Source of the DNA: an uncultured Myxococcales bacterium
GTDB taxonomy: Bacteria > Myxococcota_A > Polyangia > JAAYKL01
Assembly: GCA_964458775.1 (NCBI GenBank)
Contig: CAYWLQ010000003.1
Span: 17,923 to 81,922 of the forward strand
Direction: 5' to 3'
DNA length: 64,000 nt
A program made the position numbers and the translations under genes. This document shows positions 2,599 to 38,182 of the stretch, piece after piece; the first letter of the stretch is position 1; each line of letters opens with the position of its first letter. The notes under the pieces are model-generated. The model made no database searches and was not told the origin of the DNA. It saw only the letters and a program-made list of their open reading frames with translations.

Positions 2599-4221
2599 TT
2601 AAGAATTTTCCCGACTATCTAGATAATACTCGTAGCTGCCTTCGAACATTCTCATACGACCGTGGTCGATTTCTATTACCCTGTTTACTAGGGAGCGCAG
2701 AAAGTATCGATCGTGGCTGACCAGTATTAGAGTTCCCCCAAAGTCTTTTAATGCCTCTAATAGAATTTCTCTCGATTGCATGTCCAGATGATTTGTCGGC
2801 TCATCTAACACCAAAAAGTTTATGGGACGAGCCAGCAGGGTTGCCAAAATTACCCTGCTTTTTTCTCCTCCGGATAGAGTGCATATTTTTTTGTCTGCAG
2901 CATCTTTAGAAAACAAGAAAGCACCGCAAAGGCTGCGGATTACTCCAATAGAAGATTGGGGCAGGGCGTCTTGGACAGTTTCGAAAACTGTTTTGTCGGC
3001 ATCCAGCACATCCATGGACATTTGGCTGAAATATCCCAATTGTACGTTGGCTCCTATTTCTACAATTCCTTCTGACGGTTCGGTCTTGCCGGCTATGACC
3101 TTTAAAAAGGTTGATTTTCCGGCCCCGTTTATTCCTGTTACTGCAATCTTTTCAAGACGGCGAATGCGTCCTGTAATTCCCGAAAACACAGGTTTTTGTG
3201 TACCGTCTTCCAATTGCCATGACTTGCCTAGGTTTTTAATATTAACCACATCGTCACCGCTTCGAGGCGGCTCTGAAAATTCAAATCTAATTCGTCTTTC
3301 TTCTGCCGGAATTTCAATTCGGTCTATTTTTTCCAGTTTCTTAATTCGAGATTGAACCTGAGAGGCATGGGATGCCCTGGCGGCAAATCGCGAGATAAAG
3401 GCTTCTTCTTTTGCGAGCATTTCTGTTTGACGACGGTGGCCTGCCAAAAGCTGTTCTTTACGAATCTCCCTTTGTTCTTCGTAAAAGTCGTAGTTGCCCC
3501 CGTAAGAGGTTATGGATTTGTCTGCAACTTCAACGATTCGCGACACAATTCGGTTCATGAAATCACGATCGTGACAGGTCATAACCAGCGAACCTTTAAA
3601 TGAAGAAGATAACCATTCTTCAAGCCATATAATAGATTCAATATCCAAGTGGTTAGTGGGCTCATCCAGCAACAGAACATCGGGATTGAGCGTTAAAATG
3701 CCCGCCAGTGAAATGCGCATTTTCCATCCGCCGCTAAAAAAATCAACGGGGCGATGGTGATCCTCGGGCATTATGCCCAAACCGGTCAAAACTGTTGCTG
3801 CGCGATATTCAAGATCATAACCGCCCCGATTTTCAAATTCCTCAACAGCATCACCATATCTAGACAACAGCTCGGCCATAGCATCGTCATCCATCGGCTC
3901 GCAAAGGGCGGCTTCCATTTTCTTTATTTCTTCACCTAAAGCGATGACTTCGGCTGCAAACGACATTGTCTGTTCAATTGCGGTTTTGCCCGACATCTCA
4001 CCTGTGTCTTGAGAAAAATATCCAAGAACAGTTTTTTTGGGGATAGAGATATCTCCTGCATCGGGTTTTTCAATGCCGACAATTAATCGAAAAATCGTAC
4101 TCTTACCCGCACCGTTAGGGCCCACCAAACCGATTCTGCTTTGGGGAGGAATTTGAAACCCCGCCTCTTTAAAAAGAATCTGCGAACCGTGTTGAACCGT
4201 AACATTAGATAGCTGAATCAA
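2599..4221 (-). CDS. ABC-F family ATPase (two ABC cassettes, no membrane domain)
   Basis: 540 aa. Walker A motifs are GPNGAGKST and GINGAGKST. Signature motifs are FSGGWKMR and LSGGEKSR. Walker B motifs are LLLDEPTNHLD and LVLDEPTNHLD. A charged linker joins the cassettes and there are no TM helices. The TTG start at 4221 has GGAGG 9 nt upstream. Confidence 0.9.
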   Translation of the reverse strand: MIQLSNVTVQHGSQILFKEAGFQIPPQSRIGLVGPNGAGKSTIFRLIVGIEKPDAGDISIPKKTVLGYFSQDTGEMSGKTAIEQTMSFAAEVIALGEEIKKMEAALCEPMDDDAMAELLSRYGDAVEEFENRGGYDLEYRAATVLTGLGIMPEDHHRPVDFFSGGWKMRISLAGILTLNPDVLLLDEPTNHLDIESIIWLEEWLSSSFKGSLVMTCHDRDFMNRIVSRIVEVADKSITSYGGNYDFYEEQREIRKEQLLAGHRRQTEMLAKEEAFISRFAARASHASQVQSRIKKLEKIDRIEIPAEERRIRFEFSEPPRSGDDVVNIKNLGKSWQLEDGTQKPVFSGITGRIRRLEKIAVTGINGAGKSTFLKVIAGKTEPSEGIVEIGANVQLGYFSQMSMDVLDADKTVFETVQDALPQSSIGVIRSLCGAFLFSKDAADKKICTLSGGEKSRVILATLLARPINFLVLDEPTNHLDMQSREILLEALKDFGGTLILVSHDRYFLRSLVNRVIEIDHGRMRMFEGSYEYYLDSRENS

Positions 4222-4453: not shown

Positions 4454-5779
4454 TTAATCCTCGTCGGCTTCGCCTCTTAGTCTTCGCAAATGAGCGGCAA
4501 TTCTGGCTTCTACTCCGGAATCTTGAGGAATGTAGTATTTGGCTCCGGCCAATTTTTCGGGAAGATATACTTCGCCTTTTGCGTAGCCGCCTTCGTTTGG
4601 AGGGTATCGATAGCCTTCACCGTATCCCCATTGTTTCATCATTTTGGTCGGCGCGTTTCGTATTTTCATTGGAACCGGTAAAGGCCCGTGCTCGGCAATG
4701 TCTCGCTTGGGTCCGTGAATTGCGTTAACTTGAGCATTGGATTTCATCGCGCAGGCCAGGTAGGTACAGGCTTGAGACAGCGCATAGGCTCCCTCCGGCA
4801 TTCCGACCCTTTGAAAAGCAGCGTCTGCTGCTATTGTTACTTGAAGTGCGTGAGGATCGGCATTGCCGATGTCTTCTGATGCAAAAATAATCATTCGCCT
4901 TAGAACAAAAAGAGGATCCTCGCCGGCATCGAGCATTCTAAACATCCAGTACAAAGCTGCGTCAGGATCAGATCCTCGCATACTTTTTATAAAAGCGGAG
5001 ACAACATTGTAGTGTTCTTCTCCTGTCTTATCATATAACAAAGCCTTGGCTTGGGCTGTTTCTTCCACTGTCTTTATAGTTACTTTTTTGTCTGCGTTTA
5101 GGGCATGTTTAAACGACAATTCTAAATTTGTAAGAGCAAACCTTGCATCCCCTCTTGACATTTGAGCAATAAATAACAAGGCTTCATCATCAGCTTCGAC
5201 ACCCATTGTGCCCAAGCCTCTGTCAGTATCTGTTGCCGCTCTTTTTAGAATTTCTAAAACTGCCGCATCATCAAGGCACTCCAATCGAAATACTTTGCAT
5301 CTGGATAAAAGAGCAGCAATTACCGAAAAAGACGGATTTTCTGTAGTAGCTCCCACCAAGGTTACCACGCCGGACTCTACTCCGGGCAACAGAGCGTCCT
5401 GTTGTGCTTTATTAAATCGATGTATCTCATCAATAAAAAGAATAGTTTTTCTTCGATAGGAACGCCTAATTTCAGCAGCTCGCGCTAAAATTTCTCTAAC
5501 CTCTTTAAGTGTGCCGTCAACTGCCGAAAACGGTGAAAAAGAAGCACCTGTGTGATTGGCAAGAAGTCGAGCCAACGTGGTCTTTCCGCTGCCCGGAGGT
5601 CCGAACAGAATCATGGAGGGTACGCGATCTTCTTCTATCGCACGTCTTAGGAATTTTCCTGCGCCCAGTATATGTTCCTGCCCGCAAAATTCTTCTAACT
5701 TTCGAGGTCTCATGCGGTCAGCCAGCGGAGTTAGCGTTTTGTCTTGCTTGGCTGAATGGGTAAAAAGATCATCAGACAT
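4454..5779 (-). CDS. rarA: Replication-associated recombination protein A (AAA+ ATPase RarA/MgsA)
   Basis: 441 aa. Walker A is GPPGSGKTTLA and Walker B is ILFIDEIHRFNK. The C-terminal region is MgsA-type (GSDPDAALYWMFRMLDAGEDPLF...). Confidence 0.9.
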   Translation of the reverse strand: MSDDLFTHSAKQDKTLTPLADRMRPRKLEEFCGQEHILGAGKFLRRAIEEDRVPSMILFGPPGSGKTTLARLLANHTGASFSPFSAVDGTLKEVREILARAAEIRRSYRRKTILFIDEIHRFNKAQQDALLPGVESGVVTLVGATTENPSFSVIAALLSRCKVFRLECLDDAAVLEILKRAATDTDRGLGTMGVEADDEALLFIAQMSRGDARFALTNLELSFKHALNADKKVTIKTVEETAQAKALLYDKTGEEHYNVVSAFIKSMRGSDPDAALYWMFRMLDAGEDPLFVLRRMIIFASEDIGNADPHALQVTIAADAAFQRVGMPEGAYALSQACTYLACAMKSNAQVNAIHGPKRDIAEHGPLPVPMKIRNAPTKMMKQWGYGEGYRYPPNEGGYAKGEVYLPEKLAGAKYYIPQDSGVEARIAAHLRRLRGEADED

Positions 5780-5883
5780 GCCGAATTTCTATCACGCTTG
5801 AACAAGCAGGGCAATCAGTGACCTTGTTTGAAAAAAAGATTGTATTTTGCTATTTGGATGTCTTTTACAGGTATCGGTATTCT

Positions 5884-8841
5884 TTAGTAAGTTTTAGTGA
5901 TCAGACCGTCTTTCGCGAGGGAGAGAACTTGCTCAACTCCTATGATATTATTCTCCGCTCTTAAATACCAAGAACCGATTTTGGTTCCGTTTTGTTGTGA
6001 ACCCCAAAGTTTGAATTGATTGGCGGCGGAAATTCCAACAATACCTAAGCCCCATGAGTTGCGAAGTATGATCACTGCCTGATTATCACCGTTCAAATTG
6101 CCGGTTCCGACAATACTGTCGCTTGATGTTAGTTTCCAGCTGCTTGTACCGCCTCTGTTAGTGATTTTGGTATTATAAGCAATTAGGCCGATAGTTGTTA
6201 GCTTTTTATCAGGACCCAGCGTTACTATACCAAGACCCCAGTTAGAGCTGAGCAGAATATCATCTCTTCCGTCGCCGTTAAAGTCGTCTACTCCCTCAAC
6301 CTTATCGTCATTATTGTAAACCCAATCGCCTATTCGAGTATTTTTTTGATGCATGGCTATAGATTTGAGAGGAGTTATCGAGGAATCTTTTTTTAATATA
6401 CCTATACCCCAATTGCTGCGTACGATAATTTCATCTTTCCCGTCGCCGTCGAAATCACCTAGTCCTTCAAACTTGTCGTTGCTTCCAAGACGCCAATCAC
6501 CAAGCATTGTATCGTATTTGTGAACTCCGAGGCTGATAAGTTTTTTGAGGTCACTTGTACCCAGAATGCCGATGCCCCAAGGACTACGTACAAGAATGTC
6601 TTTTCTTGTGACAGCTCTGAAACGACCCATCGCGACAATTTTATCGTTGGTTCCCCGTCGCCATTCTCCGACACTGGTATCATTGGGAATTATTTGGTGC
6701 TGAACGAGCTGACCGTTTTTAAACTCTAATATACCAAGACTGTTTTTCGCGTCGGTGAAAATAAGCTCTGCTCCATCTTGACTGTCCAGATTTGCTACAC
6801 CCAGGAAATTATCTGTGCTTGAGAGTTCCCATGAACCTATTTTAGTTCCAAAAGGTATTGCCAGTTTGCTTTTCGGCGAATTACTATTAAAGCTGATCAC
6901 CCCGATACCCCAAGAGCTGCGCAAAATGACATCTGTCTTGCCGTCATTGTCTACATCGGCTGTGCCTAAAACTTTGTGTGATAAAGAATATCTCCAGTCG
7001 CCTGCGAATTGATCCTGTCTTAAGACACTTCCGGATAAAGTTAGCGCGGTTCCTGACAAAGCAAACACTCCCAAACCTGCAGGAGGAGTTTCATTGTCAC
7101 ACAAAGCCGACTTGCCGTCGTTGTCGAGATCGTTAATGAGAAGATTAGGATTGGAGCGATACTGATAGCGGTCATATTTGTTTGGGCATGGATCACAGAC
7201 ATCTCCGATACTGTCTTTATCCGAATCTTTTTGATCTTGGTTTGCATTATAAGGACAATTGTCAAAAAGATCGATTACTCCGTCAGTATCGCTGTCAACG
7301 AAGAAATTGGCGTCATCCTGATTAGGCGCTACGATCAGCTGGGAAGCATTGTTAATGCTAGTAGACATTTTATGACCCGTCATGTGCGTAAAAAACGAAA
7401 ATGAATAGAGTTCTCGAACGAGATTTCGTTTGGTGCTATCGTTGTTGTCAATGTTGCCTGAAGTGCTTGGCGTTTGTACCAAAAAGAACTCATCTTGAGG
7501 TCTTTTATTTGCGGCTTGACCGGCTTGGCTGTCTGCATGGCTGTTTTTAATGATCCAATAGTCACCGCCTCCGGTTGTTGATTCAAGGTAACCGATGATA
7601 AGAACGCTGTGTCCGTGAGAGAGACAGTAGGTTTTATTGGAAACAGTTTTTTTGAAACCCTTACAGTCACCTTTGTCCAGTGCATCCTGAACAGGAATGG
7701 GCTGAAGCTTGATAAATTTGTAAAGCGACTCTGTCGGTTTGCCGTCCAACGAGACATCTATAGCCTTTGGATTGTCTCCCCAATGCCAGCCGATGGATGT
7801 GCGGATCGGGAAACCGAATTTGATGTGATCCTTAATGAGCTGGTCGATGGAGGCATCATTTCCGGACTTGTCCAATGGTATTGCCGCACTTGGAGTAACA
7901 AATCGTGCTTGCTTCTTTTTTGCAGCATCCATCAAACAGTTGAAAATAGGCATAAAGCGCTTGCTCCAGATTCTATCTTTACAGACTTTTTCCGGTTTGT
8001 CAGGATCGCATCCGTTCGGCAAGTTGGGATTGGCCAGATCGGCCAGCTCTTGCGATGTCAAAGCGGGCTCTTTGATATCTGCACAGTAGGTTGATACTGA
8101 ACCGAAACGCTTTTGCAGCGCATATGCCATCTCAGGATGCCACTCACCCCAGTTAGGCCACAGTTCTGAATCTGGAAAGAACGCTTCGGTCGCTGCTCCT
8201 TGCCAAGCGCTGATTCCCTTGAGAACCGGGTTTGTGTCAAGGTTGTTGTGTTGAGTATACATCAACGTTCCCTCAGACAGATCGATGGGAAGAAAATCAT
8301 TGGGATCTAAAGTATTGGGAATTTTGCTTCTAATAGCCATTCCCAGCATAATCTCCATTGCAGCAGCCATAGAGTATGTGGAACAGCTGCCTCCTCGTTG
8401 GGACTTCTCTCGTGATACAAAATTTCTGCCGTCGCAGGCGAGGAACGAGACCATTCTATAATCTTCAGGAGTTCCATTTTCATCCAAGTCTGCCTTAAAT
8501 GAAACAGGAGAACAAGCACCGGGAGAGGTCATGGAACGCAGACTAATTGAGGTGGAAGGAGGTCCTTGCGGTGAAGAAACAGGAATCATGTCTTTTCCCA
8601 TATCGGGAGGAATTGAAATAACTCTACTGATCTCATCCGGAGAAAGAGCTTTTACTTTGCCTACGAAAGACTTGCTTCCTGTTTTAGTATTTACGCTCGC
8701 GTTTTTTATCATTTTGTCTTTGACCGTGTTTTGAGCCGAAGAGAAGAGCGGGACTGTTGAAAAAAACAGCAATGCGATGACTGTTGCGAGTAGTTTCGGC
8801 ATTTGAATCCAAATCCATTGTGACTTGATGTTGAATTTCAT
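5884..8841 (-). CDS. Secreted papain-like (C1-type) cysteine peptidase fused to thrombospondin type-3-like repeats and a 7-bladed FG-GAP/VCBS-like propeller
   Basis: The start is moved to ATG 8841, which has AAAGGAG 8 nt upstream; the track's first 6 codons read through that RBS. There is a signal peptide (...LLFFSTVPLFSSAQN). The catalytic-type motifs are GGSCSTYS (Cys), HGHSVLIIGY (His) and YWIIKNSH (Asn). The Ca-binding TSP3-like repeats are DSDTDGVIDLFDNCPYNANQDQKDSDKDSIGDVCDPCP and DLDNDGKSALCDNE. Seven repeats of about 52 aa follow, of the form G-[DES]-W...DFDGDGKDEIIVRSNWGIGIL. Confidence 0.75.
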   Translation of the reverse strand: MKFNIKSQWIWIQMPKLLATVIALLFFSTVPLFSSAQNTVKDKMIKNASVNTKTGSKSFVGKVKALSPDEISRVISIPPDMGKDMIPVSSPQGPPSTSISLRSMTSPGACSPVSFKADLDENGTPEDYRMVSFLACDGRNFVSREKSQRGGSCSTYSMAAAMEIMLGMAIRSKIPNTLDPNDFLPIDLSEGTLMYTQHNNLDTNPVLKGISAWQGAATEAFFPDSELWPNWGEWHPEMAYALQKRFGSVSTYCADIKEPALTSQELADLANPNLPNGCDPDKPEKVCKDRIWSKRFMPIFNCLMDAAKKKQARFVTPSAAIPLDKSGNDASIDQLIKDHIKFGFPIRTSIGWHWGDNPKAIDVSLDGKPTESLYKFIKLQPIPVQDALDKGDCKGFKKTVSNKTYCLSHGHSVLIIGYLESTTGGGDYWIIKNSHADSQAGQAANKRPQDEFFLVQTPSTSGNIDNNDSTKRNLVRELYSFSFFTHMTGHKMSTSINNASQLIVAPNQDDANFFVDSDTDGVIDLFDNCPYNANQDQKDSDKDSIGDVCDPCPNKYDRYQYRSNPNLLINDLDNDGKSALCDNETPPAGLGVFALSGTALTLSGSVLRQDQFAGDWRYSLSHKVLGTADVDNDGKTDVILRSSWGIGVISFNSNSPKSKLAIPFGTKIGSWELSSTDNFLGVANLDSQDGAELIFTDAKNSLGILEFKNGQLVQHQIIPNDTSVGEWRRGTNDKIVAMGRFRAVTRKDILVRSPWGIGILGTSDLKKLISLGVHKYDTMLGDWRLGSNDKFEGLGDFDGDGKDEIIVRSNWGIGILKKDSSITPLKSIAMHQKNTRIGDWVYNNDDKVEGVDDFNGDGRDDILLSSNWGLGIVTLGPDKKLTTIGLIAYNTKITNRGGTSSWKLTSSDSIVGTGNLNGDNQAVIILRNSWGLGIVGISAANQFKLWGSQQNGTKIGSWYLRAENNIIGVEQVLSLAKDGLITKTY

Positions 8842-25865: not shown

Positions 25866-27266
25866 CTATTTGGATAAGGATGCTACTGCTGCTGTGCTCA
25901 TATCTTCGTCAGCAAAATAGAGTCTAAGAGCAACACCGTTTTGTTTTGGTGTTGTTATGAAGCGGGGAAGTTCTCCATTAACATAGACAATAAATCTCGC
26001 ACCGCTTTCTCTTTGTATTGACTTTATAGAGCGAACCTGCGGATTCTCTTTTCCGTCTTCCATCCATCCCTCTTTTTTTACAAGTCCTCCGGGAACGTCT
26101 ACAACTACACCGTTGGGTTCTCTTACACGATAAGCGGTAGCGTATTCCACAGGCCATTTGGTCGGAAGAAGCAAGTTTATTTCGCCTTCTGACAATGCTT
26201 GTTCGTCTTTTTCTTCTGCAACGGTCTCTTGTTTTTCTGTCGGACTATTGACTTGATTAGCTTGCGGTTCATTTTTTTGCGCAGATGACTCGATTAATCC
26301 TGCTGTCAGCGGATTGGGTCCTGTTGAATATGTACTGTCTTGAATAGTTGAAGAACTTGCAATAGCGGTATTTTCTTGAATCGTCTCAGCCGCCTTCTCA
26401 ACAAGATCTTTATCTACTGATTCAATCGTTCGGTCCAAAACCATTACGCCTGTTTCCATTTTGGGTAAAGTCGAAGCCGTTGCAATAGAGTCAACAGGTC
26501 TATTCCCGGGTAATATACTTGCTACTTTGTTCTTTACATCATCTAAGTTTATTACACCTGCTTTTTCAAACAGATAAAGTGAAGCAAAAACCATTCCCAG
26601 TACAAATGCGCCCACCATGTGGCGAGCCATTTTAAACCGACGTTTGGTACTCTGTCGAAACTCCAATTCCTCCGGCGGCAAAAGCTCTCCGACGGCCCAT
26701 TGCGGTTCATCAGATGCTGTCGAAGATGAGGTCGTTGAGTATTCTTCATCTCTTCGTTCCGTTGTCGGGCCTGTTTTTCTTTGTTCATTTTTATTTTCAG
26801 TTGAACTTGAAATTTCTGCGATAAAATCAGCCCAGGAGCCTTCGGTTTTTTCATTGGGCTTAGCCGCAGAAATTTGAGACGGCAATGAAGCTCCGATTGA
26901 TAGTTCTCCTGTGTCTTCACAGGGAGGGTCTATAGCTGTTTTAACAGCGGCGAGCAAAGACTCCGATGTTTTTGCAACAACTGTGGGACGAGTTCCTCTT
27001 GTTCTAATAGACAATCGGAGCCTTGGAAATCCGGTTTCCGGATCATCTTCAACTCCAATCCTGTGAATTGAACCGATATTCAAGTTCGCAGTATCGCCGA
27101 ATTGTACCGGAATATCGACTTCAAGCGCGGGAAAGGGACAAACCAAAGATACCCCTCGGGCGGTTTCTTGATCCATCAGGGTGTTTACTGACATCTTTTG
27201 ACCGTCTACCTTTAAACGCACTAAGTTTTCCGGACGCTTAATTTCAATACTTTGCGAAGAGCTCAT
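25866..27266 (-). CDS. Hypothetical single-pass membrane protein
   Basis: ATG 27266 is preferred because GGAGG lies 5 nt upstream. There is a central TM helix (HMVGAFVLGMVFASLYLF) with acidic and S/T-rich linkers. No family recognised. Confidence 0.55.
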   Translation of the reverse strand: MSSSQSIEIKRPENLVRLKVDGQKMSVNTLMDQETARGVSLVCPFPALEVDIPVQFGDTANLNIGSIHRIGVEDDPETGFPRLRLSIRTRGTRPTVVAKTSESLLAAVKTAIDPPCEDTGELSIGASLPSQISAAKPNEKTEGSWADFIAEISSSTENKNEQRKTGPTTERRDEEYSTTSSSTASDEPQWAVGELLPPEELEFRQSTKRRFKMARHMVGAFVLGMVFASLYLFEKAGVINLDDVKNKVASILPGNRPVDSIATASTLPKMETGVMVLDRTIESVDKDLVEKAAETIQENTAIASSSTIQDSTYSTGPNPLTAGLIESSAQKNEPQANQVNSPTEKQETVAEEKDEQALSEGEINLLLPTKWPVEYATAYRVREPNGVVVDVPGGLVKKEGWMEDGKENPQVRSIKSIQRESGARFIVYVNGELPRFITTPKQNGVALRLYFADEDMSTAAVASLSK

Positions 27267-27420
27267 GATTTCCTCCATGGCAAAAATCGCCTTCTAAGCT
27301 GTGTATACCATGGTAGTTTAATGTAGGCAAAAAAACTACATATTTTTTTTTGCAATTATAATTGCCTGTAATTATTGGTTAAAACAAGCGGATTTGGGGG
27401 GGGAGAAGAAAAAGGAGAGA

Positions 27421-28185
27421 TTAGTCGATCATTTTTTCTAAAGCAGACAGGTCAGGAAGCTCGTCAAGTGCAGGCTGAAGCACTATTTCAATTCTTCGGT
27501 TTTGAGCTTTTCCCTCTTCCGTGTTGTTGTCTGCGGCGGGCTGTGTATCAGCATAGCCGGCTGCTGAAATATTGGCATCGGAAACACCGTTGTCTATTAA
27601 GTGCTTAACCACTGAAACAGCTCTGGCCGAAGACAAATCCCAGTTTGATTTAAATCTTTTGTTTTTAATAGGAACATTGTCTGTATGTCCGGCCACTTGA
27701 AAAGTTCTTTCTTTAATATCCGCAAGTATTCCGGCAACCTGAGTCAATGCTTCAGAACCCTCATCAGAAAGCTTATCGCTGCCGCTTGGAAATAGAATGG
27801 CGGAAGCCATTTCCACGATCATTTTATTATTTACAATCTTAATCTTAAGCTTTCCTGATTCCACCATTGATTTAAATTGAGAAAGCATTTTTTGAAAGGT
27901 TTCGAGTCTCTTTTTTGCTGCTGCAGCCAATTTTGCGTTTTCAGAGCTTTCTCCTGAGAGTTGCTCAATGCTTTTCTGAAGTTGTGCAATGGTTGCTTCC
28001 AGCACCTTCTTTTCGCTTTTCATTCCTGATAGTTCTACATCAGCATTTGCTAACCGGTCTTGAGCCTGTGCTAATTGTTCTCTTAGGGATGCTGTGTCTG
28101 CGTCGTATTTTTCTTGTGGAACGCCGCATCCTACAAGTAGCGATATTGAGAGCACCCAAAAAATACCAATGATTCCAAATCTCAT
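27421..28185 (-). CDS. OmpA/MotB-domain lipoprotein with coiled-coil linker
   Basis: ATG 28185 has AAAGGAAG upstream. Lipobox LLVGC followed by G. A coiled coil of about 110 aa precedes an OmpA-like domain (FPSGSDKLSDEG, VAGHTDNVPI, SNWDLSSARAVSVVKHL, NRRIEIVL). Confidence 0.85.
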   Translation of the reverse strand: MRFGIIGIFWVLSISLLVGCGVPQEKYDADTASLREQLAQAQDRLANADVELSGMKSEKKVLEATIAQLQKSIEQLSGESSENAKLAAAAKKRLETFQKMLSQFKSMVESGKLKIKIVNNKMIVEMASAILFPSGSDKLSDEGSEALTQVAGILADIKERTFQVAGHTDNVPIKNKRFKSNWDLSSARAVSVVKHLIDNGVSDANISAAGYADTQPAADNNTEEGKAQNRRIEIVLQPALDELPDLSALEKMID

Positions 28186-28393
28186 GTTAACTTCCTTTCT
28201 TCTTTTAAAAGCTAAAAACATTTGCGCAGATGATACCCCATTTGACGCAATAGGCAATGCACAAAAAAATTCTAATCATGATGTCAATCGACCTTGCTTA
28301 GGATGCATAAGGAACAAGGCGCGCTAAAATAATTCAATGGATGATCGAGAGCCCTTCAGTTTGAACTAACAGAGGGATTCAAAGAGAGCGGTA

Positions 28394-32022: not shown

Positions 32023-32706
32023 ATGCGTCGCGCAGATCGCCTTTTTTCTATTGTTCAGATTCTGCGAAACCGCAGTTTAACCACGGCCAAGTATCTGGCG
32101 GAAATTTTGGAGATATCTGAAAGAACCGTTTATCGGGATATAAGTGACCTGCTTTGCTCGGGAGTGCCTGTTATGGGCGAAGCCGGGGTGGGATATAGAC
32201 TTGATAAGAGCTACAATCTACCTCCTCTAATGTTTACCAAGGAGGAAATTGAAGCCCTTGTTTTGGGAGCCGGCATCGTTAGAAGTTGGGCGGATCGAAA
32301 TTTGGCTCGTGCAGCGGACCAGGCTATTTCGAAGATCGAAACCGTGCTGCCTCCTGTATTAAAGAACCGCATTAACAACACGCCCTTGTTTGCTGTTAAC
32401 TTTGCTCCGGATCAAAAACTGTCAGATCGACTAGTTCAATTGCGTGAAGCGGTTAACAGCATGCAAAAAATCAAGCTTATCTATATAAGTGCCAAAGAAG
32501 AGAAAACAAAGAGAACGGTCCGGCCGCTTTGTCTTACCTTTTTTGCTCCGATATGGATGCTGACGGCATGGTGTGAGCTGCGCAAGGCCTTTAGAAACTT
32601 TCGTTTAGACCGAATAGATAACATTGCTGTTTGCGACATTCGATTCAAAGAAGAAAAAGGCAAAACGCTCAATGACTATTTAATACAGATGAAGACTGAA
32701 AAATAA
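32023..32706 (+). CDS. YafY-family transcriptional regulator (HTH + WYL domain)
   Basis: N-terminal HTH RADRLFSIVQILRNRSLTTAKYLAEILEISERTVYRDISDL and a WYL-type middle domain (KIKLIYISAKEEKTKRTVRPL). The ATG lies 1 nt after the VOC stop, so the two are probably an operon. Confidence 0.85.
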   Translation: MRRADRLFSIVQILRNRSLTTAKYLAEILEISERTVYRDISDLLCSGVPVMGEAGVGYRLDKSYNLPPLMFTKEEIEALVLGAGIVRSWADRNLARAADQAISKIETVLPPVLKNRINNTPLFAVNFAPDQKLSDRLVQLREAVNSMQKIKLIYISAKEEKTKRTVRPLCLTFFAPIWMLTAWCELRKAFRNFRLDRIDNIAVCDIRFKEEKGKTLNDYLIQMKTEK

Positions 32707-33612: not shown

Positions 33613-33759
33613 TCATACAGGAACCTTTGTTTTTTGCGGGGGAACTCGAACGGGTTTCCCATCGAAAGCCTGAATCAGATCGGTTCCGGTTTCGGCGGCT
33701 ATTTTTTCGGCGCGCTTTCGAGCACGTTTGAGCGCGGTAAGAGCGGCTTTAGTTCCTGT
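33613..33759 (-). pseudogene. Start-less 48-codon ORF remnant (C-terminal fragment of a small protein)
   Basis: The minus-strand frame reads TGTKAALTALKRARKRAEKIAAETGTDLIQAFDGKPVRVPPQKTKVPV and then TGA (33615-33613). An in-frame TGA bounds it upstream (33762-33760), and it contains no ATG, GTG or TTG. It is GC-rich like the adjacent insert. Confidence 0.3.
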
Positions 33760-33806
33760 TCAAACCGACTATTTAGATTCCTAAGTCATGGGTGTGCTCT
33801 CCGTAG

Positions 33807-35051
33807 TCAATGATTATCGACTATATTGGCCGCCCATATTACCAATCGCAACTCACTGTCGTCGATAACGCTGTATTCAGGAATCCGTCCGGACATTTTT
33901 TGACTTTCCGCCAAAATAATCGGTACGCCGTCCCCTCTTCGATCCATTAAAAACGTGCGGCCCAAAGCATCAGCCGGGTCTACTGAACAGCGCGCCAGTA
34001 GAGAGACTATCAATTCGTTCCGACTGTATTGGCGCATGCTCATGCTTTCCGGTGTAAGCGTATTGGCAAGCCCGCCGGGAACGTACAATTCCAGCCGGTC
34101 TTTGAACATATGGAGCCGTATGCGAGCACCGGCCATGGAATAGTCACGGTGGGCAACGGCATTGACCAGCGCTTCAAACACAGCTCTTTCACTAAACTGT
34201 GAAAGCTCCCTTCGACTTTGACCTTTCACAGCGCGTATCTGCTGATTGCGACGCACAAAATGTAAAGCTTCCTTAACTTGATTGTCGAGGGTGCCCCCAA
34301 AATCGCGCGCATCATTTTGGTAATTTACATCTGCCCGTTCCCCTGCATAACTGACCGCCTGAATTTGCGCATGGGACAAACGTTGTTGAGGGTCGTTGCT
34401 GCATAGGAGAACGCCGCCGACTGTCAGACGCAAGGTTCCATCATCATCGTCGGCAACAATCCGCAACTTTCGCAGCAAAGTTTCATCAGCACCGGCATTG
34501 TCCCTTAGAAAACGACTTGCCAGATCTGAATTGAGATCTGTTATTTCGCTGCCGGATACCACGGTTTCGTCGAATCGAATTACCCGACTTTGACTGCGTT
34601 CCTGGAACAAACGGGCGAGCACCTCAGGCTGCATTTCTCTTTTCGAGCTGCCGATACGGCGAAAGTATCCTCCCGGGCTTTTGTGAACAAACAGGCTCCT
34701 GTCCACTTCCACAGTGATAACCGGCACAAGCTTTCCGCTCGAATCGGACAGCTCCAGCTTTCGAATCATTGTATCCAACGGCGGTTTAATAGAATCGTTG
34801 CATACCTCGCGAACCCAACCCTCGACAACATCGAGTCGTTCGATCGGTATGCCGAAAATTTCACGTGTCTTGTCATCAACACCCAACACAAGTGTACCTC
34901 CGCGACCGTTTGCAAATGCAGCTAGCTCATCCGCAAAATCATCCCGATTGGGGGCTTTTACACGATCTCCCGCCAACAGGACTTGCTTCAATTCCAGACC
35001 GGAATCTTCGCCGAGGCGGATTCGTCTATCCAAACTGTCTTTATTATTCAT
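33807..35051 (-). CDS. AlbA_2 (Schlafen-like 'divergent AAA') + HATPase_c_4 protein, COG2865-type
   Basis: The N-terminus, GLELKQVLLAGDRVKAPNRDDFADELAAFANGRGGTLVLGVDD, matches the AlbA_2 pattern. The C-terminal FEALVNAVAHRDYSMAGARIRLHMFKDRLELYVPGGL matches HATPase_c_4. No C-terminal wHTH is seen. The ATG overlaps the stop region of the upstream gene by 8 nt (ATGAATAA). Confidence 0.8.
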   Translation of the reverse strand: MNNKDSLDRRIRLGEDSGLELKQVLLAGDRVKAPNRDDFADELAAFANGRGGTLVLGVDDKTREIFGIPIERLDVVEGWVREVCNDSIKPPLDTMIRKLELSDSSGKLVPVITVEVDRSLFVHKSPGGYFRRIGSSKREMQPEVLARLFQERSQSRVIRFDETVVSGSEITDLNSDLASRFLRDNAGADETLLRKLRIVADDDDGTLRLTVGGVLLCSNDPQQRLSHAQIQAVSYAGERADVNYQNDARDFGGTLDNQVKEALHFVRRNQQIRAVKGQSRRELSQFSERAVFEALVNAVAHRDYSMAGARIRLHMFKDRLELYVPGGLANTLTPESMSMRQYSRNELIVSLLARCSVDPADALGRTFLMDRRGDGVPIILAESQKMSGRIPEYSVIDDSELRLVIWAANIVDNH

Positions 35052-37767
35052 GGGTCGAATCTCCAGACTTCATAATTCGCCTATAGCGCATCTCGAATGC
35101 CTGCGCGCCGCCTTCCATGACACGACAGATTTCGTCTCTTACTTTTCTTTCCTGTAGACCGCCTTCGCATCCGATGTGCGTGGTTCCACCGCCGGGAACG
35201 AGTGACACGATCTGCTCCGCATCCCCATGTACCACGACGTTTGGATTGTGGGTTACCACGATAATTTGTCGCTCGGATTTTGTCTCTCGAAGGCGTCGAA
35301 CTACCAGTCCGTAAATCAGCGTGTTGTCCAAATCGTCCTCGGGCTGATCGAGAATGATCGGCTCTTTGCCATATCCAAGGACAAACGCGAGCAATGCAGC
35401 GGTTTTCTGTCCCGCAGAACCCTGTTCGATGGGCCTCCAAGCTCCACTTGATGTGGGCTCCTTGAATTTGACAGATACAGAGTCCTCCGGAAGAAACAGC
35501 GCAAGGCGATCCAGCCGTTCCGGTTGGGTTTTCTGAAGTGCGTTTGCAAATCTGTGGTCTTTTACGCTCCATCCTTGGCGTTCATCAGAAACGAACGCAT
35601 TCATTTTTTGAATGATCGCATCCAATGATTCATAGCTCCACGGTTGTTGATTCGTTGAAATTTGGTTTGCAAGTGAATGATAGTCCTCTTCAAATTTCGC
35701 GGAAAACCCAAGGACACCTCTGAGAAATTGTTTAATAGTCTCTGTTGAACAAGACCCGCAGTACTCGACATCAACTCGGATCAGCTCACTTGTGCTGTTG
35801 CTGATAAGCGATTTACGTCGTGCGGTAAGACTTTTGCGCGTTTCTCTATATCGGCTGAGTACATTCTTCGCTTCTTTGTCTATTGTCTCAGCATTTGCAC
35901 GCTGCTTTTCGAGACCGGCAATCTCCGTTTCGAGGCTCGCCGCCCTTTCAAGCAGCTCGCGGTATTCGTCAGGGCTTCCGATACCGGCACTTTCCAATTG
36001 CTCGGATACCTCCTGAAAAGCCGATTCGCTCGCGTGTACCGTCTCTCGCCAGACCGCCATATCCGCACCCGCCAGTATGGTTTCGATAGTTGTTTTTGTA
36101 TCCGCGATTTTTTGTACGACAACGGATTGCAAATCCATGACCACGGCGCGTGTAGCACTGTGCGCATTTAAAAGGGCGCGTATCCCAGGCGTATCCTCTT
36201 GTTCACCGCCGAGGTCGATATCTGCGGCCGCCAGCTCTTCGACCGATTGGCTGACACGCTCAATGCCTTCCATCGTGGTCTCAACGATAGCTGACCAAAA
36301 ACCATCCAGGCGTCTTCGCTTTCTGTATTCTCCGAGAACTTGGGCATGGCCGCCTTGCTGCAATAGCAAGAGCTTGCGTTTCACGTCTTCCAAGATTGCT
36401 TTTCGTCCAGGAATATTTGAAGCCGACGCCCTCAATGAACGCGCATCGGCCCGCAAAGAGAGATATCGATTTTCGAGCTCTTTGAGTGTCCTACGAAGTT
36501 CGACACCGCGAACCTCCTCGCTGTCGTCGATAACAGTAAGCAGCGCATCGGGATCAAGCGCCAACTGAAAAAGCTGTTTTTGACTGTAGATTCGAACAGG
36601 AAACCGTTCCCATACATCTCCTTCTTCGATGACTCTTTCGTTTTTTTCACATCTGACAATAGCCGGAACAATTCCCTGTTGGTCCCACGTGACAACAAAA
36701 CGCTCGCCGTCTTTTCTATAGAGAACTTCGACCACGGTATCCGGCGTCAGCAATCCCTCGTCCATGCGCCCGGTCGGCACACGCACGCGCTTTTCATATG
36801 CGTCTCTCAGTGAATCTTTATCCTTCTCGCCGAGCTCGTTTTCACGCCGAAGCGCCGCTCGAATGAGGTCGACGGCGGTGGATTTGCCGGCGCCTCTACC
36901 GCCGATAATACTGCTCAACCATGGGTTGAATTGGATTTTTAAAGGACTTTGACGCCCCATGAATTTCGCTTTGGACACCGAGACACTTTCGATAACGCAA
37001 GATGCATGTCGATTTGGGTCGGAAGACGCCAACTGCAAAGATGCATTGCCGTCGAGGAGAGAAAGCCGAAGCCCCTCGATATTTGGGGTCGTCATCTTTA
37101 CCCAAGTAAACCGTCGGCCCATTTCCGCTAACCGATGGCTGTCCGATCCGTGCAGCTGCGGAATTACTCGTTTGATTTCAGGTCGACTTCCATCCAACCA
37201 TGTTGTATCGGTTGGGAAGGCCGGAACCGGCTCGACCTCCGCAGCAAGCAATCGCCGATGACACAATTCCTTGATACGCTGTTGGCCGTCGTGTTCTAGA
37301 AGACCGGAAGGCTTGTTGATGTGGGCTCCGATCACCAGAACATCGTCCCCGCCGATATCGAAGAGCTGTTCCACACTAAGAGACGACCGCGCGGCTTGTT
37401 CACCGCGAGAATCTACCGGGACGTGTGCTTTGGACAGCAGGTCATCCACATGCGAAGCGGCGCAGACCGGATCGAAAATAAACAGTAAGTGCGTTCCGTC
37501 GCAAGCTGTCAGCTCAACGCCGGGAAATATCACCGGTGCGCCTTCAACTTCTACCGCTGCCGATTTCAGTGGGTCGATTCCGGCGCTCGTGTTGTGATCG
37601 GTTACGGCAATCGCGTGAAGCCCCGCGTCGCGGGCCGCCTCAACCCATTTTTTCCAGTCCTTTGCATTTCTGTCTTCCTCCGGCATGAAATCATAGGATG
37701 CGAAGGTGTGCGCATGTAAATCTATTTTCCACCATCTAGACCCCGGCCAATTCCATGATACAGTCAT
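35044..37767 (-). CDS. PHP phosphoesterase fused to coiled-coil ABC/SMC-like ATPase (PplA-like)
   Basis: 907 aa. The PHP motifs are DLHAHT, VTDHN, GVELT, IGAHI and HGSDSH (aa ~14-235). Walker A is GGRGAGKST (aa 289-297). A coiled-coil-like region of about 480 aa follows. The C-terminus has GSAGQKTAALLAF, Walker B PIILDQPEDDLD and VVTHNPN. GGAGGT RBS lies 8 nt upstream of the ATG. Confidence 0.85.
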   Translation of the reverse strand: MTVSWNWPGSRWWKIDLHAHTFASYDFMPEEDRNAKDWKKWVEAARDAGLHAIAVTDHNTSAGIDPLKSAAVEVEGAPVIFPGVELTACDGTHLLFIFDPVCAASHVDDLLSKAHVPVDSRGEQAARSSLSVEQLFDIGGDDVLVIGAHINKPSGLLEHDGQQRIKELCHRRLLAAEVEPVPAFPTDTTWLDGSRPEIKRVIPQLHGSDSHRLAEMGRRFTWVKMTTPNIEGLRLSLLDGNASLQLASSDPNRHASCVIESVSVSKAKFMGRQSPLKIQFNPWLSSIIGGRGAGKSTAVDLIRAALRRENELGEKDKDSLRDAYEKRVRVPTGRMDEGLLTPDTVVEVLYRKDGERFVVTWDQQGIVPAIVRCEKNERVIEEGDVWERFPVRIYSQKQLFQLALDPDALLTVIDDSEEVRGVELRRTLKELENRYLSLRADARSLRASASNIPGRKAILEDVKRKLLLLQQGGHAQVLGEYRKRRRLDGFWSAIVETTMEGIERVSQSVEELAAADIDLGGEQEDTPGIRALLNAHSATRAVVMDLQSVVVQKIADTKTTIETILAGADMAVWRETVHASESAFQEVSEQLESAGIGSPDEYRELLERAASLETEIAGLEKQRANAETIDKEAKNVLSRYRETRKSLTARRKSLISNSTSELIRVDVEYCGSCSTETIKQFLRGVLGFSAKFEEDYHSLANQISTNQQPWSYESLDAIIQKMNAFVSDERQGWSVKDHRFANALQKTQPERLDRLALFLPEDSVSVKFKEPTSSGAWRPIEQGSAGQKTAALLAFVLGYGKEPIILDQPEDDLDNTLIYGLVVRRLRETKSERQIIVVTHNPNVVVHGDAEQIVSLVPGGGTTHIGCEGGLQERKVRDEICRVMEGGAQAFEMRYRRIMKSGDSTHE

Positions 37768-38182
37768 TGCTTGTTACCTCCGTCTCTAAATCGTGGTAAA
37801 CTGAGGAATTTGCTGTACTATCAGGTCTTGTCTCCCTCGCTTTTTTCAATGAAAACACCTCTTCGCATCGGTATCCAAGACTAAAACTGAAAGTCACAAT
37901 CTCAACTTATCGTAAACGGGAAAAATCGTCCAGACAAAGACTTTTGAGATTGATTGATTTACTTTCTGTTAAGAGCGGCTGTTGCAAAAAAAAAATATTA
38001 ATAACAGTTATGGGTAAAGACAAGATTTTACAGGGTTTTCAAGAGGTTATAACTAAACTCAATACAGCCTACATACCGCGAGAACAGAGCTTTATTTAAC
38101 TTTTGCATTACCGACAAAGATAATTCAAACAACTCAAATTGAGTGATTGAGAAGTTGCTTTTACCCTGGTACCTTTCGCTTT

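Follow-up and report, generated by a model that had tools for sequence, protein, structure and literature searches.

The 64,000-nt window analysed here, a stretch of contig CAYWLQ010000003.1 from an uncultured Myxococcales bacterium (assembly GCA_964458775.1), carries on its minus strand two overlapping genes of the trlF–trlG kind, one encoding a 907-aa PHP phosphoesterase–ATPase fusion (TrlF) and the other a 414-aa Schlafen-type protein (TrlG). The reading frame of trlF closes with ACC CAT GAA TAA (the protein ending GDSTHE before the TAA stop) and the ATG of trlG is embedded in this end (cccATGAATAAtaaa). An earlier note on this DNA, which had singled out the pair as a candidate undescribed defence system, described the two genes, their 8-nt overlap and this terminus just as we find them; both motifs that it quoted, HAHT (within DLHAHTF) and GAGKST (within GGRGAGKST), are present, and the domains that it named in each protein are those returned by profile searches. 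Features of the locus are collected in Table 1.

Table 1. Features of the trlF–trlG locus (positions are those of the window; aa, amino acids; ORF, open reading frame).
Feature	Position	Strand	Basis and remarks
trlF-like gene, 907 aa, ATG start	35044..37767	minus	ORF list; N-terminal PHP phosphoesterase fused to SMC/Rad50-like ABC ATPase, long coiled-coil insert
PHP domain, ~aa 9–258	36994..37743	minus	metal ligands D16, H18, H20, H58, E85, H93, H149, D209 and H211 invariant in 20-sequence alignment
Walker A / P-loop GGRGAGKST, aa 288–297	36877..36906	minus	G289, R291, G292, G294, K295, S296 and T297 invariant
Coiled-coil arm, ~aa 421–657	35797..36507	minus	AlphaFold2 helices 421–449, 452–471, 474–511, 527–566, 568–593 and 601–657, predicted local distance difference test (pLDDT) ~85–95
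ATPase C-lobe, aa 741–900	35068..35547	minus	ABC signature GSAGQK (783–788), Walker B IILDQPEDD (804–812), H-loop VVTHNPN (H840)
trlG-like gene, 414 aa, ATG start	33807..35051	minus	ORF list; Schlafen/AlbA_2 nuclease domain and GHKL-type (HATPase_c_4) domain
Schlafen (SLFN_AlbA_2) domain, aa 15–140	34632..35009	minus	motif E15-x4-E20-x-K22 and D60
N-box-like EALVNAVAHRDY, aa 293–304		minus	just upstream of HATPase_c_4; E293, N297, H301, R302, D303 and Y304 invariant
HATPase_c_4 / GHKL-like domain, aa 308–404	33840..34130	minus	Pfam 1.2e-15
8-nt stop/start overlap trlF/trlG, ATGAATAA	35044..35051	minus	read from sequence; translational coupling
Shine-Dalgarno-like GGAGGT	37776..37781	minus	8 nt upstream of trlF ATG
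Compositionally foreign insert, ~4.2 kb, GC ~0.50–0.55	33620..37800		GC profile; two genes and short 3′ remnant only

Pfam searches with the 907-aa protein returned AAA_21 (residues 648–845), SMC_N and AAA_23, together with weak, sub-threshold matches to PHP and PHP_C. The NCBIfam model TrlF_fam_ATP (NF045780, ‘TrlF family AAA-like ATPase’; curated cut-off 350 bits) was matched at 520.5 bits, residues 9–898 aligning with positions 2–943 of 944. PADLOC’s Ppl model PDLC02208 is also covered almost end to end (E = 1.7e-114, residues 9–899 on positions 4–893 of 894), but the score on the NCBIfam Ppl equivalog NF042955 is 487.3 bits, under its cut-off of 1000. Judged by these profiles, the protein is a TrlF-family member and, because of that shortfall, not Ppl by the NCBI equivalog criterion, so that the Ppl identity proposed in the earlier note stands for the full-length architecture and falls for the family assignment. 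Ten relatives, paired or lone, scored likewise: they pass the TrlF model at 540–658 bits, and none of the ten reaches the Ppl cut-off (459–627 bits).

The catalytic residues of TrlF were followed in an alignment of 20 sequences (the window protein and 19 relatives at 52–58% identity). Besides the PHP and Walker A columns listed in Table 1, those of the ATPase C-lobe are invariant at G783, S784, G786, Q787, D807, Q808, P809, E810, D811 and H840, and the PHP HxH motif is read directly from the sequence as DLHAHTF. Mean identity to the paired relatives is highest in the C-lobe (60%) and lowest in the coiled-coil region at residues 421–740 (31%), with 45–60% across the PHP and ATPase lobes. A sequence search of the PDB found no close relative, only a PHP metal-dependent phosphoesterase (3e0f, 7e-07) and AriA. 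Foldseek matched the AlphaFold2 model to the heads of MukB, JetC, SMC, Rad50, RecN, LmuB and AriA, and its N-terminus to 3e0f-type PHP proteins and RNase AM. The window TrlF is on this evidence a Ppl-like protein with intact catalytic motifs, predicted to be active.

In the 414-aa protein, Pfam detected SLFN_AlbA_2 (2.5e-15, residues 15–140) and HATPase_c_4 (1.2e-15, residues 308–404), NCBIfam models gave no match, and in PADLOC only Argonaute-associated Schlafen models matched, with the prokaryotic Argonaute (pAgo) model PDLC02394 covering residues 39–402. When a profile built from 37 TrlG orthologues was aligned to rat SLFN13 (5yd0) and human SLFN14, E15, E20 and D60 fell on the SLFN13 catalytic positions E205, E210 and D248; among these orthologues E15, K22 and D60 never vary, E20 is kept in ≥90%, and the motif fits the Ex4(E/D)xK of prokaryotic Schlafen nucleases (PMC13056530). 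The Schlafen core of the AlphaFold2 model reaches a pLDDT of 80–90 (63 overall), and Foldseek matched TrlG to the COG2865 structure 3lmm over its full length, to the N-domains of SLFN13, SLFN14, SLFN11, SLFN5 and SLFN12 over ~110 residues, and to GHKL kinases. TrlG therefore appears to be a stand-alone SLFN+GHKL ‘Schlatpase’ module with a predicted nuclease role.

The pairing was surveyed in 80 loci from many phyla, found by searching a single genome of each species for conserved TrlF peptides. At 61 of the 80, the gene for a full-length counterpart of the 414-aa protein (48–75% identity) begins on the same strand no more than a few bases from the stop of TrlF, and two further loci hold decayed TrlG remnants. 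Overlap was scored in 62 paired loci, a plasmid locus (L081) and a Logan contig (L083) included: stop and start overlap in 55 (by 8 nt in 25, 4 nt in 18 and 1 nt in 5), the rest being gaps of ≤22 nt. The TrlF and TrlG identities to the window copies are correlated across 60 loci (r = 0.95), with TrlG the better conserved partner in all 60 pairs (means 61% versus 43%). In a neighbour-joining tree of TrlF, pairs with TrlG occur throughout both major clades, and the pairing recurs in the very distant type represented by Yersinia ruckeri plasmid pYR3 and Photorhabdus. trlF–trlG is, then, one conserved, translationally coupled unit, co-inherited across phyla, which upholds the earlier proposal that the two genes form a coupled unit; their pairing goes far beyond chance.

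Organisms carrying the pair belong to the Acidobacteriota, Chloroflexota, Gemmatimonadota, Latescibacterota, Planctomycetota, Cyanobacteria, Proteobacteria, Spirochaetes and others. A number of the nearest relatives (loci L004–L031) seem, by their record titles, to stem from sponge-associated lineages (Candidatus Synechococcus spongiarum, Spongiisociaceae); for Latescibacterota, Caldilineaceae, Palauibacter and Aldehydirespirator among the same loci a sponge association is only possible. This hints at an ecological hotspot of the window clade in sponge-associated lineages.

Signs of pair decay were seen at a few loci. The two TrlG remnants comprise 36 aa (L033, positions 3984–4091) and the first 164 aa (L070, 3107–3598), and in L031 (8001–11952) the trlF frame extends ~130 nt into trlG. 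One derived TrlF clade lacks TrlG altogether, its members standing alone or next to genes for an SNF2 helicase and PglZ: in four of its loci (L053:8001–15663, L062:7181–14855, L060:566–8200 and L050:70–4629) an SNF2-family helicase of ~930–970 aa begins 6–54 nt past the TrlF stop and is followed by a PglZ-domain protein, surroundings that look BREX-like. Within this clade, TrlF varies hardly at all between Desulfobulbus, Spirochaetales, Verrucomicrobia, Accumulibacter and Hafnia, and such near-identity across distant phyla suggests recent horizontal spread.

The window locus is itself a horizontally acquired two-gene trlF–trlG module. As the earlier note had claimed, the pair lies on a compositionally foreign insert: GC is 0.50–0.52 over 34–38 kb as against ~0.38–0.45 on either side (background ~42%), and a finer profile places the borders near 33,620 and 37,800, between a gene for a voltage-gated-type ion channel on one side and one for alanine racemase on the other. 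The closest relative, on Logan contig L083, has a TrlF 82% and a TrlG 90% identical to those of the window and the identical 8-nt overlap, set between unrelated flanks (RloB upstream, CreD downstream). DNA homology between the two ends at the ends of the ORFs and upstream begins only about the Shine-Dalgarno-like GGAGGT; given the unrelated flanks, the mobile unit is essentially the two genes. Contig L083 also carries an 89-aa ORF (2376–2645) that overlaps the start of trlF by 4 nt and has no counterpart in the window, with the RloB-domain gene further upstream (769–1221).

The GC-rich block reaches ~190 nt past the trlG stop, where a start-less minus-strand frame at 33640–33790 (ending TKAALTALKRARKRAEKIAAETGTDLIQAFDGKPVRVPPQKTKVPV before its stop codon) gave no Pfam match and might be what is left of the 3′ end of a small gene brought in with the cassette. 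No meaningful direct or inverted repeats were found around the insert, and no tRNA or transfer-messenger RNA genes or integrase flanking it; an Rfam scan of the whole window gave no matches, and promoter and terminator matches were no more numerous than in shuffled sequence. In metagenome contigs, the relatives of the alanine racemase next to the insert were ≤58% identical and none had the window’s neighbour genes; with relatives so distant and neighbours not kept, insertion is not demonstrable by comparison with an empty site.

The same two-gene architecture is already known as the trlF–trlG core of the temperature restriction locus (TRL) of Photorhabdus laumondii, an operon with the order trlR–trlF–trlG (Hapeshi et al., 2020; 10.1101/2020.06.02.129163; PMC7554251). 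With this match, and with the NCBIfam TrlF model passed, the earlier view that the pair was undescribed, and its Schlafen-like partner no component of any named system, has to be given up. In Photorhabdus, TrlG is an AlbA_2 + HATPase_c_4 protein earlier mis-annotated as RecG, TrlF is a ‘histidinol phosphatase’ and trlR encodes a 79-aa putative regulator; deletion of the operon lifts the temperature restriction and complementation brings it back, its transcription goes up on temperature up-shift, and in clones selected for growth at 36 °C the sequenced mutations all lay in trlG and none in trlF, which is more than twice as large (PMC7554251). Synteny has been reported in Vibrio anguillarum and on Y. 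ruckeri pYR3 (PMC7554251), and pYR3, which we retrieved, holds a 79-aa gene, a ‘TrlF family AAA-like ATPase’ (582 bits on NF045780) and an overlapping 382-aa AlbA_2-type protein.

Window and pYR3 agree in having trlF followed directly by an overlapping trlG on the same strand, in TrlF scores above the NCBIfam TrlF cut-off (520 and 582 bits) and in a patchy, horizontally acquired distribution. They differ in the Ppl-model score of TrlF (487 bits in the window versus 161 in pYR3) and in the small upstream regulator of TRL, which has no trlR-like counterpart in the window or the 80 loci: no minus-strand ORF longer than 53 aa lies in 37768–38146 of the window, and clustering of small upstream ORFs across the 80 loci gave no conserved family. 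A plasmid pair from Burkholderia thailandensis, labelled ‘TrlF family AAA-like ATPase’ and ‘ATP-binding protein’ by PGAP, is nearer to the window (TrlG 54%) and is preceded by a gene for a 67-aa ribbon-helix-helix protein, for which tBLASTn found no match in the window or the 80 loci. Alike in order and architecture but distant in sequence and devoid of trlR, the window pair is a divergent representative of a two-gene kind that already has a name.

Part of the family has defence-related genes among its neighbours; for comparison, the density reported for prokaryotic Schlafens is 1.9 defence genes, against ~0.15 for housekeeping genes. The 109 immediate neighbours of the relatives include DNA methylases, PglX/PglZ, Hma, DUF499/DUF1156, HEPN_Swt1, DUF4276 and RmuC, and the Burkholderia plasmid copy adjoins a PLD restriction enzyme. 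Full-length TrlF without a TrlG-like neighbour occurs on 453 plasmid records, commonly on conjugative Klebsiella, Escherichia and Enterobacter plasmids, KPC plasmids included, and a close TrlG accompanies it on one plasmid record only, that of B. thailandensis; no full-length TrlF was found in phage records. On p23141-KPC (L082, NZ_MF788069.1) a lone TrlF gene at 5010–7763 lies beside a cytosine methyltransferase / type II restriction pair and recombinases. A defence role for the pair is plausible.

Genes near the window pair encode a glyoxalase, a WYL–helix-turn-helix (HTH) regulator, an outer-membrane efflux protein and an MFS transporter, and the annotation of these surroundings detected no defence system. 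The regulator (HTH_11 + WYL, 32023–32706, plus strand; PADLOC ‘WYL’ 1e-59) directly follows the glyoxalase gene, one gene from the insert; it lies outside the GC-rich block and has no evident tie to the trlFG cassette. An OmpA/MotB-like protein with a coiled-coil N-terminus (27421–28257, minus strand) matched PADLOC ZorB models at 9e-27, and the next gene (25866–27278, minus strand) encodes a 470-aa protein without a Pfam match. As no ZorA-like gene precedes the MotB-like one either, Zorya was rejected and the match is probably a generic MotB/Pal-type one.

Ppl (PplA) is a single-gene anti-phage system reported by Gao et al. in 2020. The window TrlF resembles it in its full-length PHP + ATPase architecture with a coiled coil and in its intact catalytic residues, whereas it differs from a protein that acts as a single gene in having a conserved, coupled partner. 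Ppl of E. coli is a single-stranded DNA 3′–5′ exonuclease that becomes active upon phage-induced depletion of nucleoside triphosphates (NTPs), which relieves its inhibition, and upon the appearance of 3′-OH ends (PMC12904381), and a phage counter-defence protein against it is known (PMC11482910).

The partner has counterparts of its own. Prokaryotic Schlafens (pSlfn) are phage-activated tRNases, most commonly of the architectures Slfn-HisKinase (34%) and Slfn-HisKinase-HTH (19%), with protection seen only for DUF262 and Ig-like fusions (Perez Taboada et al., 2026; PMC13056530); TrlG, with its Schlafen fold, Ex4(E/D)xK motif and succeeding GHKL/HisKinase-like domain, has the commonest of these architectures. 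In SLFN-pAgo systems the SLFN+GHKL ‘Schlatpase’ is the tRNase effector, and ATP on the GHKL domain leads to tetramerisation that builds the active nuclease (Kuzmenko et al., 2026 preprint; 10.64898/2026.05.29.728809), and Schlafen proteins with a minimal HK and a winged HTH adjoining BREX loci have been described as back-up suicidal effectors (PMC12839542). Unlike the pSlfn and SLFN-pAgo proteins, TrlG has no fused sensor (Ago, Ig-like or DUF262) and is joined instead by a separate, coupled gene for a PHP-SMC ATPase. Word searches of these sources found no mention of a PHP-ATPase partner of Schlafens, and a literature search for Ppl or PHP-ATPase paired with Schlafen under other names returned only Hapeshi et al. 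(2020).

In logic and ATPase fold, the pair also recalls Lamassu (LmuB + LmuA) and PARIS (AriA + AriB), in which an SMC/ABC-type ATPase adjoins a nuclease effector kept inactive until a trigger arrives; the TrlF model matched LmuB in its ‘nuclease sequestration state’ (9hqu) and AriA (8ux9). Membership of either system was ruled out: profile hidden Markov model matches are weak and partial (LmuB 4e-10, AriA 6e-09), TrlF carries its own PHP nuclease, its partner is Schlafen-GHKL and not Cap4, TOPRIM or DUF4435, and the kleisin-like LmuC of Lamassu has no equivalent in trlFG.

Starting from what was observed here—the genes, their domains and intact catalytic motifs, their coupling and cross-phylum co-inheritance, and their horizontal mobility—we infer the sensor and effector roles and phage or other foreign DNA as the natural trigger, and propose, with our confidence poised at the midpoint, that trlFG is a sensor–effector abortive-infection system in which TrlF is the sensor and controls TrlG, a toxic RNase effector. 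TrlF would monitor DNA, for example free 3′-OH ends or the NTP level as E. coli Ppl does, and might itself act as an exonuclease in the first line. Release or activation of TrlG, probably following nucleotide-dependent oligomerisation via its GHKL domain, would lead it to cut tRNA or other RNA and so arrest growth. An effector role for TrlG is suggested by its intact Schlafen motif, by the SLFN+GHKL module being the effector in SLFN-pAgo and by prokaryotic Schlafens being tRNases. The modelled fold of TrlF, which resembles the LmuB and AriA scaffolds that sequester nuclease effectors, would suit the sensor. A conserved TrlG beside a TrlF whose coiled coil is its most variable part is what one would expect if the effector is constrained and the sensor evolves fast, and the Photorhabdus genetics, with mutations in trlG only and loss of the whole operon tolerated, fit a toxic TrlG and a TrlF that is not positively required.

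Several observations weigh against this proposal. We found no phage or plasmid experiment on any TrlFG pair in the literature; the sole recorded phenotype is temperature restriction, from an operon distant to the window pair; and two HisKinase-type pSlfns gave no protection in E. coli (PMC13056530). The only known defence-gene matches within ~6 kb of the window pair are the generic WYL and MotB-type ones, and many of the 109 immediate neighbours of the relatives are housekeeping genes. A physical interaction of TrlF with TrlG is suggested by the gene overlap alone, and the overall pLDDT of the AlphaFold2 models is moderate (68 for TrlF, 63 for TrlG), which limits them to statements at the level of fold. 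The distance from the type operon is considerable: the window TrlG is 28% identical to that of pYR3 (E = 6e-31, near full length) and TrlF aligns to its pYR3 counterpart in the PHP and ATPase head regions only, at 26–42%, values that point to homology and the same architecture, not to close orthology. Lastly, the window TrlG has E-x4-E-x-K where pYR3 TrlG has E-x4-Q-x-K, so that catalytic competence may not be the same in the type TRL proteins as in the window clade, and the Photorhabdus genetics may not transfer to the latter. The pYR3 protein (L084, 6965–8113) reads GEDSRHQFK at this point, a glutamine replacing the second catalytic Schlafen glutamate.

The roles might instead be reversed, as the earlier note had supposed, with TrlF the effector, a Ppl-type ATP-regulated exonuclease acting on invading DNA, and TrlG an accessory nucleic-acid sensor or transcriptional regulator. 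TrlF evidently can work without TrlG, as its lone full-length copies on 453 plasmid records and the TrlG-less clade indicate; it retains both its PHP and its ATPase site, Ppl protects E. coli by itself (PMC12904381; PMC11482910), and relatives of TrlG are annotated ‘predicted HTH transcriptional regulator’, COG2865 being the ‘HTH regulator with Schlafen domain’. A pure regulator, however, would have no need of the full, strongly conserved Schlafen catalytic motif that TrlG keeps, the SLFN+GHKL module is the effector in SLFN-pAgo, and no temperature-tolerant Photorhabdus mutation fell in trlF, despite a size more than twice that of trlG (PMC7554251). Taking the TrlG motif, the Schlafen tRNases and the trlG-only mutations together, this assignment is less well supported than its converse and we regard it as unlikely.

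We consider it similarly improbable that the module is non-immune, whether a switch that halts growth in response to stress or temperature or a selfish, toxin–antitoxin-like addiction cassette, in line with what the first paper on TRL put forward for temperature restriction (Hapeshi et al., 2020). The only experimental phenotype, TrlG-dependent arrest at 36 °C with transcription induced by up-shift (PMC7554251), would suit such a switch, and so would a cassette that travels as a bare two-gene unit and sits, in the window and in many relatives, among housekeeping genes outside defence islands. TrlF is nevertheless homologous over its full length to a protein with validated anti-phage activity, Schlafen nucleases have a documented role as immune effectors, and part of the family lies beside restriction–modification, BREX or Hma genes or is carried by conjugative plasmids. 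Heat-triggered autoimmunity, moreover, is often seen as a by-product of defence systems. That the two genes are independent and adjacent by chance or through defence-island clustering, both families being individually common near defence genes and Ppl a single-gene system, is extremely improbable and effectively refuted by their shared order and strand at 61 of the 80 loci, the overlap in 55 of 62, the correlation of 0.95 and the recurrence of the pair in both major TrlF clades and the distant pYR3/Photorhabdus type.

The locus itself is an ordinary new copy of a named pair, and the comparative result is worth more. It ties together the Photorhabdus temperature restriction locus, Ppl and the bacterial Schlafen tRNases, three topics that have been studied separately. 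With somewhat less assurance than we attach to the sensor–effector proposal, trlFG might be a widespread, hitherto unrecognised two-component immune system in which foreign DNA is sensed by a Ppl-like PHP-SMC ATPase, which then licenses a Schlafen-GHKL tRNase to abort the infection; the Photorhabdus phenotype would then be heat-triggered autoimmunity, and the lone TrlF proteins of Enterobacterales resistance plasmids, possibly also Ppl, derivatives that have shed the Schlafen partner. Tools of the PADLOC type would probably tag trlF as a single-gene ‘Ppl’ and overlook that partner. For TRL, whose growth arrest is unexplained, the trlFG proposal offers a mechanism that is concrete and testable. 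For the HisKinase-type Schlafens, the most abundant prokaryotic class and one for which the literature cited here does not show a defence function, the pairing suggests a candidate partner and sensor for at least one clade.

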